From positions 36,864-100,863 of IMG/VR virus record IMGVR_UViG_3300004369_000004: DNA of 64,000 nucleotides. One strand, given 5' to 3'. Below, piece after piece: positions 9,461 through 57,162 of the stretch. The DNA comes from a virus. Under the pieces are notes generated by a model that was given only the letters and a program-made list of their open reading frames with translations, was not told the DNA's origin and did not search any database. The stretch's first letter is position 1. Every line of letters begins with the position of its first letter. A program made the translations under genes and the position numbers.

Positions 9461-9937
9461 TTAACATTTCCAACGTCTACGTGCTTGTCTGATTCTAGAA
9501 TTAGGATCATTCTTTGTCTTCTCAGAAGAACGTTTTAATTGACCTAATGATCTTGCACAGTAAGACTTTCTACGTTTAGCTGCAAGCGAGCCTGGTTTAA
9601 CCTTACCAGTTACAGCTGTTTTTAATTTAGATCCAGGATTAGCTTTTCTATAAGCTCTTACTCCCTTTTCTGTCATACCTGCTCCTTCTTTAGTTGGGCG
9701 ATAGTTAGCACCAGGACCCTTTGTTGTATGTCTTATAGTGCCTCCTTTAGCCATGTAAAGAGATTGCAGTTTATTTATCTTAGCACCATGCTTTGCTTTT
9801 CTCCAGGTGCCGCCTTTTGACTTATACCATTTAGCAGCCCAACCATTGGCATAGGCTGATGGATATACATCAAACTTTTGTCTAGCCATAGATTTAGCTC
9901 TAGACCAAAGACTTGGGTTATTAGGTTTATTTGCCAT
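9461..9937 (-). CDS. Small basic two-module protein, 158 aa (N-terminus like the DUF5872 N-half; C-terminus DUF6321-like)
   Basis: PSLWSRAK...KFDVYPSAYANGWAAKWYKSKGGTW and RRKSYCARS...PNSRIRQARRRWKC motifs; family names from memory. Confidence 0.6.
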   Translation of the reverse strand: MANKPNNPSLWSRAKSMARQKFDVYPSAYANGWAAKWYKSKGGTWRKAKHGAKINKLQSLYMAKGGTIRHTTKGPGANYRPTKEGAGMTEKGVRAYRKANPGSKLKTAVTGKVKPGSLAAKRRKSYCARSLGQLKRSSEKTKNDPNSRIRQARRRWKC

Positions 9938-33715: not shown

Positions 33716-35725
33716 TTAATATCTAAAGGGGGTAACTCCTAGTTGTTTAAAAGGCGAGCCTTTTTTAATAGTTTTAAAATAAGATTTCATTCTGTCATCT
33801 TGATTCGTATCATGTACTATTACTCTATTAGATAGAGTCTTAGACATCGCAAGAGTTAATCCAAATGCAATAATACGGTCAACATTGAGTTTTGGTGTAA
33901 ATTTTATTAATTCTTTTAATAGTAATGGGTCTAAAATTCTAGAGACTCCAAGTCTTTCTTTAATGATATTTCCTTCTTCATCTCTTACTACATCTGTAAC
34001 TTCTGTTAGGTATTCAATAATCAAAGACAACAAATAATTTTTAATGTCTTTAGTCATGTGAATTCCAAAGTCACGATTAACAGAAGAGTTTGGGTGTATA
34101 TCATTTAGGAAAGAAGGAGTTCTTTCAAGTAGTCTGGTAGACTCATTCTTTTCAACACAATGTTGAATAAATCCGTAGTCCATGTTCTCGCAAAGACTTT
34201 TAGCATTATAGTACTTAAGAAGCAGCTTGGTAGTCTCATACCACTTTTCAATTTTATCAGGTCTTCCTACATAAGCAGCTACAATCATATTCTGCCAGCC
34301 TTCGCCTGATATATTGTGAACTCTCTTGTAAATGTACGTAGCCCCCAAAGAAGTTGAATACTGAGCTTGTGATTGTTTATATGGGTCAGTGCCTGCAGTA
34401 TAAAGACCGTAGGGTGCATCAAAGATTGGGTATTCCCAGATTTGTATTACACCTTCTAGTCGATCTGAAGGTTTAGATGGAAAATTTTCTACGGGTTTCT
34501 TATCCGTAAATTTATGCATCACTTTATTCTCAGAGTTTAAATAAAGCTCTACAAAGTCTGGCTTAATATCCTCATTAACTAACTTCTGAAGTTGTTCTTG
34601 AAGAATGTCTACAGGAAATATATTCTGAGACATCTCTAAGAAACATTCTTCATGAGTAAGTGGGTAGTACATTACCTCCTTTAGGTAAGCTTCTAAACCA
34701 GAAGATTTTTTAACTTGCTCTCTGTTTTTAAGAATGATCTCATTGCCCTTCTCAAGATCAGAAACAAACACAGTTATATTGTCTAGTTCTGACTGATCTT
34801 CTTTTTGCAGATAGAGTCCTAGTGGCTCTGGTGTTTTAGGAATTTTAAGAGACTTTGTACCAGGTACAAACAAACCATAACTCTTGCCTGACTCCTCTGT
34901 CTTTACAGGAAGGAAGTTATAAGCTTCTGGATTATTAAAAAGCTCTTCCAAATCACCTGCTCTAGTCATGTCTCCAGATGTTCCAATTACAATAGGAGAA
35001 CAGCGCCACCCGTGAGGTGAGTCAAAACACGGAGTTGTTGCTGCAAGACAAGATAGCATTTTCCCCTTACCAGCCTCTTCAAGCATAAATGAAGAGAGAG
35101 TAAGACCTGCTGCTGCCTCAGTGTTATTGCCTTCATCAAAGTTTCTTACGTGGATCTTTGACCACTCATTTCTCTTGTTTGTTTTTTTGTCTTTAAAGCC
35201 AAGAGTAACTTGTCTTTTCCAGTCATCTTCAATCCTAGGAAATCTAAAATAATCTGGAAGGTTTCTTAAGGTAAGATCTACAGCTTGTGTAGTATTACTT
35301 AAGTCAGGTTGGTTCAAAGCCGAAATCAAGTGGTCTCCCCCTTGCATAGTGATAGCTTTGTGGGCTATGTAAGAGGAAGTCAAGATCGTTTTTGAAATAC
35401 GTCTCGATCCTACCATCACAACTCCCTTCTTGCCATCAGGATGATTTTCGGCTTTGTGAATAACCTCATCTATCTCTAGATATGTATCCCATAGTTGAGG
35501 CCTGCCTAATTGCCTAGTAAGTCGGTTTCCCTGTTGTATGTCTAAATACAAAGATGCATAGTTTAGATGCCAGTAGATAAACGGAGAAAAGTAAAAACCA
35601 TTAATGGTTACTCCCTCATTAATCTTCTTGTCCTCATTTTCCCAAAATGCCTCATACTCCTGAGAGTCTATGTCAGGAATAGATTTTACATTTATCAAAA
35701 ATTCTGGACTACCTAAGTTATGCAT
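33716..35725 (-). CDS. terL: Terminase large subunit, 669 aa
   Basis: Walker A-like GSRRISKT, Walker B LEEAGK, coupling motif GTSG, nuclease motifs GTDPY and DRIIAF. Confidence 0.9.
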   Translation of the reverse strand: MHNLGSPEFLINVKSIPDIDSQEYEAFWENEDKKINEGVTINGFYFSPFIYWHLNYASLYLDIQQGNRLTRQLGRPQLWDTYLEIDEVIHKAENHPDGKKGVVMVGSRRISKTILTSSYIAHKAITMQGGDHLISALNQPDLSNTTQAVDLTLRNLPDYFRFPRIEDDWKRQVTLGFKDKKTNKRNEWSKIHVRNFDEGNNTEAAAGLTLSSFMLEEAGKGKMLSCLAATTPCFDSPHGWRCSPIVIGTSGDMTRAGDLEELFNNPEAYNFLPVKTEESGKSYGLFVPGTKSLKIPKTPEPLGLYLQKEDQSELDNITVFVSDLEKGNEIILKNREQVKKSSGLEAYLKEVMYYPLTHEECFLEMSQNIFPVDILQEQLQKLVNEDIKPDFVELYLNSENKVMHKFTDKKPVENFPSKPSDRLEGVIQIWEYPIFDAPYGLYTAGTDPYKQSQAQYSTSLGATYIYKRVHNISGEGWQNMIVAAYVGRPDKIEKWYETTKLLLKYYNAKSLCENMDYGFIQHCVEKNESTRLLERTPSFLNDIHPNSSVNRDFGIHMTKDIKNYLLSLIIEYLTEVTDVVRDEEGNIIKERLGVSRILDPLLLKELIKFTPKLNVDRIIAFGLTLAMSKTLSNRVIVHDTNQDDRMKSYFKTIKKGSPFKQLGVTPFRY

Positions 35726-37223: not shown

Positions 37224-37616
37224 TTAGTTTATGTCTGTTGGAATTTGTGTTTTCTTAGTTGATTTTTTTAAAACAGAGGAAACATTTTCCATAAGACCTT
37301 CTTTGTCGGTCTTTAGCATGAACGTAATAGTGGCTTCGCTATTAGACGTTAATCTCAGCTTAGCATTTACAGTGTTTTTCTGTAAAAGCCCAAGCTTCCT
37401 AAGCTTAGTAATTGCATTTGAAATTACTTGAGTAGACGTATTGTTTCGAGAGGCTAACTCATCTTTAATGTTTTTATTAATAGTACCATAGTAAGAACTA
37501 TATCCTAAAACACTAGTATATAAGTCAGATAGCCTATATCCTGCGAATCTCAATAGTATATCAATGTAAGATTGATGCAATTCTACGCTTTCTTTATATT
37601 TTCTAGCTACTTTCAT
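37224..37616 (-). CDS. Putative winged-HTH DNA-binding protein, 130 aa
   Basis: DELASRNNTSTQVISNAITKLRKLGLLQK; first gene of the packaging operon. Confidence 0.5.
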   Translation of the reverse strand: MKVARKYKESVELHQSYIDILLRFAGYRLSDLYTSVLGYSSYYGTINKNIKDELASRNNTSTQVISNAITKLRKLGLLQKNTVNAKLRLTSNSEATITFMLKTDKEGLMENVSSVLKKSTKKTQIPTDIN

Positions 37617-37632
37617 TTCAGTTGGTTTTTAG

Positions 37633-37662
37633 CAAATATACTAAGATAAAATAAAAAGTCAA
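37633..37662 (-). promoter_or_regulatory. Bacteroidota-type promoter TTG-N19-TATATTTG for the packaging operon
   Basis: TTG actttttattttatcttag TATATTTG; 17 nt upstream of the 37616 start. Confidence 0.75.
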
Positions 37663-37742
37663 GTTAGAAGTTATAATATCTAAAGTTAATACATAATCTA
37701 AGAAAATTTTTAAGCTAAAAAGTTAAAAATATAAAATAATAC

Positions 37743-37750
37743 TATATTTG
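37743..37750 (+). promoter_or_regulatory. -7 element TATATTTG pointing into a non-coding structured region
   Basis: Same octamer as the other promoters; AT-rich upstream; no clean -33 TTG. Confidence 0.5.
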
Positions 37751-38045
37751 CAGTGACACCGTCTCAAAAACGATCACCTGTGAGAGCGAAAGTTATTAGC
37801 AGGTCAGAAGTCGGATAGTAGTCTGCAGGGCTGTAATAGTGCTCAAACATAGTGGATGAGGTTTCTCCGATAGTGTCAAAAGATAGTATTTGAAATCTGC
37901 AGTGTTGCGACCTATAACAATAGGCAATGAGTGGACAGAACGCAAATTCAAGGGTAAAACCTTGTCTGGTTTAAAGACTGCTGCAGTATAAAACTACTAG
38001 GAATCTTAAAAAACAAGCCCCCCAACGGAATTGTTAGAGGGCTTG
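37751..38045 (+). ncRNA. Candidate structured non-coding RNA (~250-290 nt), family not recognised
   Basis: No ORF in the track; GC jump relative to flanks; begins right after a -7 element; multiple nested helices (see findings). Confidence 0.5.
38008..38045 (-). terminator. Intrinsic terminator of the holin/fibre operon
   Basis: CAAGCCC/GGGCTTG stem followed by U6 on the minus strand. Confidence 0.7.
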
Positions 38046-38076
38046 GTGTATCTAGGTGATACTAGAAGATTTTTGA

Positions 38077-38322
38077 TTACTCTTCTTCTTTTTTGTTACC
38101 CCAGATCTTATCTAGAGAAGCAAGACCCAAAGCACCAAATGCCAAAGCTGCTACTGCGTTAATAAGCACAGGAGAAGGAGCAATATGCTCTGCTGTATAC
38201 TGATTAGCAAACAGAGTTACACATAGAGAAATACCAGCCAAAATGCCAATAAATCTTTTTGAAGAAGGGATGCCATTTTCGTCACGCAAAAGACCAGCTA
38301 CCCAGTTAATTACTTTTTTCAT
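38077..38322 (-). CDS. Putative holin (2 TM), 81 aa
   Basis: PSSKRF followed by two hydrophobic helices; charged C-terminal tail. Confidence 0.6.
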   Translation of the reverse strand: MKKVINWVAGLLRDENGIPSSKRFIGILAGISLCVTLFANQYTAEHIAPSPVLINAVAALAFGALGLASLDKIWGNKKEEE

Positions 38323-57031: not shown

Positions 57032-57105
57032 GACTTCATAGCTCAATTGGATAGAGCAACTGCCTTCTAAGCAGTAGGTTACAGGTTCGATCCCTGTTGG
57101 AGTCA
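57032..57105 (+). tRNA. tRNA-Arg, anticodon UCU
   Basis: Acceptor GACTTCA/TGGAGTC; D arm GCTC/GAGC; anticodon arm ACTGC-CTTCTAA-GCAGT; T arm with GTTCGA; CCA not encoded. Confidence 0.93.
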
Positions 57106-57162
57106 CTAAAATTAAAAACAAAATCAAAAATTAAATCAAACAACAATTAAATCAAACCAATT

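Follow-up and report, generated by a model that had tools for sequence, protein, structure and literature searches.

The window analyzed here is a 64,000-nt stretch of a 100.9-kb IMG/VR virus record (IMGVR_UViG_3300004369_000004), and all coordinates given below are positions in this window. Its TerL, encoded at 33716-35725 (-), matches the crAss-type family phrog_6681, and the closest cultured relatives of this protein are those of a Leptolyngbya phage (39% identity) and of Cellulophaga and gut crAss-like phages (23-31%). The operon that reaches TerL starts with a 130-aa gene (37224-37616), and between this minus-strand ORF and the next one (38077-38322, 81 aa) lies an ORF-poor gap of 460 nt, in agreement with the original observation, made from the letters of the DNA, that no ORF is listed here. 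We consider that this gap is almost certainly a stand-alone gene for a structured RNA, which would be read from the plus strand, i.e., opposite to all neighboring genes, and next to a weak winged-helix protein. The RNA unit spans about 37753 to about 38055 (+), or roughly 300 nt (Table 1). The extent originally drawn for it (37743-38045) held for the body of the RNA and fell short at the 3′ end, where the RNA reaches a conserved box at 38037-38053.

The plus-strand -7 box that had been proposed for this gene was read in the sequence as TATATTTG at 37743-37750, 2-4 nt ahead of the first helix. It belongs to the TAnnTTTG type, i.e., the -7 element recognized by the primary sigma factor of Bacteroidota, and for this reason transcription by the host RNA polymerase, as well as a Bacteroidota host, would be expected. 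Across 58 distinct members of the RNA family described below, a perfect TAnnTTTG was detected ≤30 nt upstream in 35, compared to 10 of 329 control windows; it mostly ended 1-5 nt before the model start, and the remaining members mostly displayed near-matches such as TAnnTTCG. An identical box on the minus strand (reading CAAATATA on the plus strand) stands 17 nt before the ATG at 37616 and presumably drives the operon from the 130-aa gene to TerL. The two identical TATATTTG boxes, back to back and 103 nt apart, would make up a compact divergent promoter region.

At the other end of the gap, a 13-bp GC-rich hairpin precedes a T-run, solely on the minus strand, and this predicted hairpin is an intrinsic terminator of the convergent minus-strand 81-aa gene. 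The same hairpin likely also ends the RNA, although the plus strand has no U-run after it. Its 3′ arm overlaps a box found family-wide: by regular expression, this 3′ box was detected on the RNA strand, 93-216 nt past domain 1, in 34 of the 58 distinct members, compared to 2 of 58 for the reverse complement and 2 of 53 for upstream sequence, and it is also present in the one chromosomal island copy of the RNA. The box could form a short hairpin, take part in 3′-end formation, or be a binding site; since the 13-bp hairpin and the box share this 3′ arm, that hairpin and the short one formed by the box would be mutually exclusive in the plus-strand transcript. A reading of the box as a Shine-Dalgarno sequence followed by a start codon was rejected, as most lineages have AUA or GUA, and only a few have AUG or GUG, at the proper spacing.

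Table 1 Positions of the RNA gene, its helices, and its flanking signals in the window.
Feature	Position (strand)	Sequence	Remarks
-7 box of the RNA gene	37743..37750 (+)	TATATTTG	Bacteroidota TAnnTTTG type; read in sequence
Divergent -7 box	37633..37640 (-)	TATATTTG	Identical to the box of the RNA gene; CAAATATA on + strand; 17 nt before ATG at 37616
Domain 1	37753..37882 (+)		Four-way junction; R1 model 83.6 bits, E about 1e-15
P1	37755-59/37873-77	GACAC/GUGUC	Domain 1
P2	37760-62/37770-72		Domain 1; short hairpin
P3a	37776-80/37800-04	ACCUG/CAGGU	Followed by internal loop with conserved GAG and GUA
P3b	37785-87/37792-94	AGC-GAAA-GUU	Hairpin at 37785-94
J3/4 linker	37805-09	CAGAA	Family consensus YAGAA
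P4	37810-15/37866-71	GUCGGA/UCCGAU	Invariant
P5a	37822-26/37852-56		Inferred; alignment of three long-P5 sequences
P5b	37828-31/37841-44		Inferred; alignment of three long-P5 sequences
Invariant run		GGUUUCUCCGAUAG	Domain 1
Domain 2	37884..37999 (+)		Outer helix closes P6 to P9
Outer helix	37884-88/37995-99		Inter-domain linker with 3′ tail; duplex predictions, constant register in relatives
P6	37897-903/37980-86	CUGCAGU/GCUGCAG	Domain 2
P7	37905-09/37941-45		Domain 2
P8	37911-15/37920-24	CCUAU/AUAGG	Domain 2
Conserved single strand	37924-40	GCAAUGAGUGGACAGAA	Consensus GCAAURAGUGGACARAA
P9	37950-53/37960-63	AAGG/CCUU	Domain 2
GC-rich hairpin (13 bp)	38014..38045		Terminator scan and fold
3′ box	38037..38053 (+)	GAGGGCUUGGUGUAUCU	Family-wide RRGGG-N4-7-URUR-YY; overlaps hairpin 3′ arm

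The RNA thus delimited folds into two domains with different degrees of conservation. Within domain 1, P3b ends in a GAAA tetraloop in the window, and many lineages have a GNRA or A-rich tetraloop at this place; the P3 internal loop (GAG/GUA) could perhaps be a kink-turn or a loop-E motif. The P5 hairpin is variable, with a loop that usually reads RAAUAR. Domain 2 differs by lineage in both sequence and size (about 100 to about 300 nt), and the whole RNA ranges from 250 to 400 nt across the family. The outer helix that closes domain 2 covaries in relatives (GUUCU/AGAAU, UUCAU/AUGAA, and AUAGUUCUU/AAGAAUACUAU). All helices listed from the single sequence were present, and homologs displayed compensatory changes for every one of them except the invariant GUCGGA/UCCGAU. 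Two further expectations did not survive the comparison with relatives or with randomized sequences. First, the pseudoknot proposed between UAGUAGU (37816-22) and ACUACUA (37993-99) can form here (-7.6 kcal/mol) and is used by the single-sequence MFE structure of the window RNA, but cannot form in the nearest relatives, where the duplex is worth -2.6 kcal/mol (L005) or about 0 (other close relatives); ACUACUA is accounted for by the outer helix, in which the 3′ tail pairs with the inter-domain linker. No other pseudoknot between conserved single strands was consistent across relatives. Second, folding was not better than that of shuffled sequences, with z = -1.9 for 37743-38045 and z = -1.4 for 37753-37999, i.e., no better than chance, and the z = -3.8 obtained for the minus strand is largely due to the terminator. 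Because single-sequence energy does not depart from chance, the evidence for structure is comparative, not thermodynamic.

This comparative evidence came in part from a TerL-anchored set of 51 loci fetched via the terminase, in which a homolog of 37740-38010 was found at the syntenic site in about 33 contigs, with 71-80% nucleotide identity and always on the strand opposite TerL. In an alignment of 25 non-identical stretches (22 distinct in the aligned core), RNAalifold assigned 46 pairs, 29 of which displayed compensatory changes, so that the covariation looked for among syntenic homologs was indeed observed. Overall, 97.5% of the cells of this close set were paired, compared to 27-43% when partners were slid by 1-3 columns, and covariation was 0.428 against 0.205 in shuffled and 0.03-0.07 in slid alignments. 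Domain 2 followed the same pattern among the 22 distinct close homologs, with 94% pairing for P6, 100% for P7, 100% for P8, and 91% for P9, and 16 of the 21 pairs of P6-P9 changed on both sides.

For a wider scan, the two most conserved blocks were combined into one strict pattern (AGAAGTYGGAT, 18-48 nt, TTYTCCGATAG), which retrieved 105 viral stretches and, in lake and ocean metagenomes, at least 120 stretches. R1, a covariance model of the 5′ domain, confirmed 77 of the viral matches, 59 of them distinct. Across these 59 sequences, domain 1 was 95.1% paired with 18 of 25 pairs changed on both sides, and its covariation reached 0.543 compared to 0.169 (shuffled) and 0.03-0.08 (slid); for P1, P2, and P3 alone, pairing amounted to 92-99%, with two-sided changes in 13 of the 14 pairs. 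The wide searches could only retrieve sequences with the P4 blocks, and part of the invariance of P4 therefore stems from the way in which members were ascertained; in the TerL-anchored set, to which this bias does not apply, P4 displayed C/U wobble variation only. Among paired cells, G-U outnumbered A-C by 169 to 12 (~14-fold), and this imbalance designates the plus-strand transcript as the folded molecule.

Searches along other routes added little to the family. BLAST of the region against GenBank phages yielded no match, and R1 detected no copy in five cultured relatives (crAss001, phi14:2, phi17:2, Fpv3, and Lbo-JY46). When the flanking 130-aa and 181-aa proteins were used as search anchors, they led to no loci or to unhelpful ones, relatives of the 181-aa protein being found in another gene order and with no RNA. 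An 18-mer matched reference genomes 12 times, about the number expected by chance, and only one of these matches (L100) proved real by R1.

The alternative that there is no RNA gene at all, and that the gap instead corresponds to a DNA-level element (a pac or cos site or an origin), to an overlooked gene for a small protein, or to structure arising by chance, would be in line with the folding energies reported above and with a location adjoining the terminase operon, the usual place of pac and cos. We nevertheless regard it as extremely unlikely: it is contradicted by the covariation, with nearly two-thirds of the close-set pairs compensatory, and by the strand asymmetry, as the excess of G-U over A-C concerns one strand only. 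In addition, the family alignment contains no conserved reading frame, and its gap runs are not multiples of three. A replication origin at the RNA was also rejected, the GC-skew turn being located at about 54 kb, away from the RNA.

We then compared the family to known RNA classes. At gathering thresholds, Rfam 15 identified only a tRNA at 57032-57105 in the whole window, where ARAGORN likewise reported only a tRNA-Arg (57032-57106) and nothing at the RNA. With the threshold relaxed to E ≤ 10, the region 37500-38200 returned weak terminator-like or chance matches, none of them over the RNA body, and Rfam searches of 13 further member loci returned nothing at the RNA positions. The assertion that no tRNA, tmRNA, or ribozyme core can be recognized therefore stood, and the broader proposal of an undescribed, promoter-driven structured phage RNA was borne out by the combination of no Rfam match, covariation, a conserved promoter box, and a G-U excess that fixes the strand. 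The family is uncatalogued, i.e., new relative to both Rfam 15 and the searched literature. Weak L20_leader matches (26-27 bits, for a threshold of 58.7) were noticed in two related contigs (L076 1547-1661 (+) and L077 40-156 (+)), ~320-340 nt past the RNA 3′ end and on the opposite strand; these are probably chance hits or another structured element. A link to UG27-type reverse transcriptases with ncRNA (PMC9226505) was rejected, as the genome of the window encodes no reverse transcriptase.

Next, we examined how the RNA is distributed across genomes and where it resides. Carriers have one copy each, and five relatives with a TerL 62-75% identical to that of the window, three of them 92-100% complete, have no copy genome-wide. 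At the syntenic site, these non-carriers have the same flanking genes with only 150 nt between them, which suggests that the RNA, its promoter, and its terminator behave as a self-contained insert. The position of the RNA is conserved even between distant lineages: a crAss-type TerL was found ≤4.5 kb away in 37 of the 59 distinct viral loci, with the RNA always at the operon head. The RNA and the TerL operon diverge in the 20 loci of the window's clade, and in other lineages (17 loci, TerL about 24% identical), the RNA is co-oriented with this operon and located just upstream of it. The same linkage was observed in 17 metagenome loci among the matches listed, 11 of them divergent and 6 co-oriented.

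No neighboring gene is constant across lineages, and wHTH-like, Cpn10, sigma factor, and Xis genes were all encountered: in a distant crAss-like lineage (L055 1105-1752 (+)), the gene directly after the RNA encodes a protein of the sigma-70 family with regions 2 and 4, and in the lineage of L112, it encodes a Cpn10-like chaperonin. One subgroup of the window's clade has a conserved ORF of ~90-97 aa on the RNA strand that ends ~60 nt upstream of the RNA (L011 2703-2996 (-) and 16 similar loci); the window itself has no such ORF. Only 1 of 151 sampled Bacteroidota genomes carries the RNA (37 bits), within a ~5-kb island at the 3′ end of a tRNA-Ser(GGA) gene (L180 6811-11851, equivalent to G146:C9:20811-25851), bounded at both ends by the 13-nt direct repeat GCGGAGACCGAGG. 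This island encodes a tyrosine integrase, an Xis-type HTH protein, the RNA (~390 nt), and ORFs of 318, 101, and 213 aa for which Pfam, PHROGs, NCBIfam, and PADLOC provided no match. It includes no capsid genes and could be a satellite-like element. An integrase was also found near the RNA in a few viral and metagenome loci among the matches listed, in which integrase and Xis are the only genes in common.

That the RNA recurrently heads the terminase operon raises the question of a cis-acting role, in which the RNA would be a leader, antiterminator-like or riboswitch-like, controlling the terminase and late operon. The 17 co-oriented loci of other lineages, in which the RNA directly precedes the TerL operon, would be in line with such a leader. 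These loci, however, usually display a TAnnTTTG of their own after the RNA and before the first ORF, which indicates that the RNA is not simply an operon leader, and the island copy has no downstream operon. For the window, the possibility is contradicted by orientation, since here, as in the entire clade of 20 loci, the RNA points away from the operon and converges on another gene. We therefore deem a cis-acting leader highly unlikely.

A packaging-linked role takes the same neighborhood in a different direction. The RNA would then be a terminase or portal cofactor, or a recognition handle, loosely like the phi29 pRNA, and the islands would be packaged by a helper crAss-like phage. Such a role would be consistent with the linkage to TerL in lineages whose terminases share only about 24% identity, including in metagenome loci, and with the presence of a copy in a capsid-less 5-kb integrase/Xis island. 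Against this, close relatives with 74-75% TerL identity have the same terminase operon and no RNA, from which it follows that the RNA is not essential for packaging; the five cultured relatives listed above have no copy either, the conserved position may just reflect a conserved module order, and inspection of the conserved loops by eye revealed no interlocking complementarity. On balance, we view a packaging-linked role as decidedly unlikely, and its most specific form, in which the RNA would be the counterpart of pRNA or of an unidentified small terminase and the 5-kb islands would be satellites packaged by a helper crAss-like phage, as very doubtful.

Taken together, these patterns suggest that the RNA is very likely an independent, trans-acting, and dispensable unit. 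An action in trans is suggested by the orientation of the RNA, which here faces away from the terminase operon, and by its working in unrelated contexts, and an accessory role by its dispensability in close relatives. Our tentative preference as to function, which we would not go so far as to call probable, is that the RNA acts by protein binding or as a decoy. Specifically, the host RNA polymerase would transcribe the RNA from its own Bacteroidota-type promoter, and the RNA would work in trans as a folded particle, the invariant core of which (YAGAA, the GUYGGA/UCCGAU helix, and the adjoining GGUUUC) would offer a binding surface for a host or phage protein. The RNA may thereby serve as a decoy, sponge, or small RNP scaffold while late genes are expressed, and would constitute an accessory, self-contained cassette of crAss-like lytic phages and small integrase islands. 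We favor protein binding because the RNA occurs patchily and only on mobile elements, with no single gene as its fixed neighbor, much like anti-defense or takeover cassettes, and a sequence-specific interaction surface is suggested by a junction and P4 that stay invariant while other helices covary. Several observations pull the other way: adjacent genes vary by lineage, none of the five cultured relatives carries the RNA, the invariant core fits a ribozyme equally well, and the constant place beside the terminase operon is unexplained by a generic decoy.

To look for a candidate partner, the 88 genes of the window's genome were contrasted between three RNA-positive and three RNA-negative whole relatives. 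Only one gene, at 9461-9937 (-), tracked the RNA. It encodes a very basic 158-aa protein (DUF6321, with a weak DUF5872 match) within the virion-cargo operon, and this protein is 83-86% identical in carriers. Overall, it was present in 6 of 6 clade carriers checked (the three contrasted and three more) and absent from 5 of 5 non-carriers checked. It was not detectable in 11 distant carriers, and we treat it as a lead only, since the co-occurrence may reflect a single shared gain or loss.

The strongest competitors to protein binding are two readings of the same conserved core. In the first, the RNA would be a ribozyme, self-cleaving or otherwise catalytic, with the invariant junction and P4 as active site and the covarying helices as scaffold. 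Small ribozymes are common in phage DNA, and the RNA combines invariant junction nucleotides and one invariant helix amid covarying ones with the GNRA or A-rich tetraloops of P3b and the conserved P5 loop, as is typical of tertiary-structured RNAs. The Rfam searches at E ≤ 10, however, returned no ribozyme, no conserved cleavage-site context was found in the family, and a size of 250-400 nt exceeds that of known self-cleavers. Hammerhead-like strings were considered and rejected: the junction has GAA before P4 and A after it, and the strand from P1 to P3 is a hairpin followed by AU(C) instead of CUGAnGA, so that the CUGAUGA strand is missing at the junction, and the CUG and CAGA strings lie inside the covarying P3a helix. 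A resemblance of AGAA-GUC to the hairpin ribozyme was likewise dismissed on account of the wrong junction topology. Overall, we consider catalysis unlikely.

In the second reading, the RNA would form an RNA-only homo-oligomer like ROOL, GOLLD, and OLE, in which conserved loops make contacts between molecules. Natural phage-associated orphan RNAs form cages or dimers (PMC12286853; bioRxiv 10.64898/2026.07.01.735769), and with its phage-borne, multi-domain nature and its conserved hairpin loop and tetraloops, the RNA described here is compatible with this precedent. It is nonetheless much smaller than ROOL and GOLLD, and inspection of its conserved loops by eye revealed none complementary to themselves or to one another. 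An RNA-only assembly appears improbable to us, to about the same degree as catalysis; both account for the same features, and sequence does not distinguish between them.

In the gut as in water, few phages of Bacteroidota are as abundant as the crAss-like ones, and to our knowledge, no crAss-like phage RNA gene besides tRNAs has an assigned role. A single strict pattern was enough to retrieve more than 100 stretches from viruses and at least 120 from metagenomes, which makes the family an abundant one; covariation supports it well, and its compact size suits structural studies. In addition, nearly identical phages with and without the RNA provide natural pairs in which its function could be tested directly. 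The position at the terminase operon and the tRNA-integrated island also lead to two opposing hypotheses, packaging or piracy on the one hand and an accessory decoy on the other.

Finally, several likenesses to known systems deserve comment, first among them tRNA. Domain 1 has stems of 5-6/3-4/5/6 bp and linkers of 0/2-3/5/1 nt, i.e., close to the 7/4/5/5 and 2/1/5/0 of tRNA, and P1 and P4 could stack into ~12 bp like an acceptor-T minihelix. Nevertheless, the RNA has no T loop, D-loop GG, anticodon loop, or CCA, its "anticodon" and "T" arms are long extended hairpins, and neither a T-loop nor an anticodon-loop consensus is present in the family alignment.

A second likeness, to 5S rRNA, was judged to be a coincidence. 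Domain 1 is of similar size and closed by a terminal helix, yet RF00001 returned no match at E ≤ 10, though this model finds the 5S of a Bacteroidota genome at 75 bits. Strings resembling those of 5S rRNA (CACCUG...CAGAAGU and CCGAUAGUGU) occur at 37776-37815 and 37866-37877, in 5S order and in a different structural context: CACCU...CAGAAGU and CCGAU.GUAGUG are strands of helices III/II and of helix V/loop E in 5S rRNA, whereas the corresponding strings of the RNA, CACCUG...CAGAAGUCGGAU and CCGAUAGUGUC, belong to the J3/4 linker and the P4 strands.

The phi29 pRNA is likewise encoded by a phage, has its own promoter and a conserved 5′ domain followed by a dispensable, variable second domain, and adjoins packaging genes. 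It differs from the RNA in being essential and universal in its group, whereas close relatives that encode the same TerL have no copy of the RNA, and in its fold and partners: pRNA has a three-way junction and interlocking loops and serves a nuclease-less ATPase, compared to a four-way junction here. No pRNA match was obtained from Rfam, and no loops with mutual complementarity were noticed by eye among the conserved loops.

Closer to the protein-binding function that we tentatively prefer are phage RNA decoys such as RNA anti-CRISPRs and pseudo-ToxI, which are short copies of a host CRISPR or ToxI repeat. Our RNA is instead large and complex, and no host counterpart of it was identified in the 151 Bacteroidota genomes. 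With these decoys, it shares the profile of accessory, patchy, promoter-driven ncRNAs of mobile elements, which in their case titrate a host protein.

The GOLLD, ROOL, OLE, and raiA RNAs (PMC12286853) provide the last comparison. The RNA differs from GOLLD and ROOL in sequence and in covariance-model similarity (no match to RF01998 or to the ROOL models), in size (250-400 nt, with ~300 nt here, compared to more than 500-800 nt), and in its carriers, which are aquatic Bacteroidota-type crAss-like phages. In its general character, it resembles all four: they are multi-domain, covariation-supported, independently transcribed, and function-orphan RNAs, mostly of phages and prophages. Whatever its function, the family extends the short list of orphan RNAs carried by phages by a new class of large RNA.
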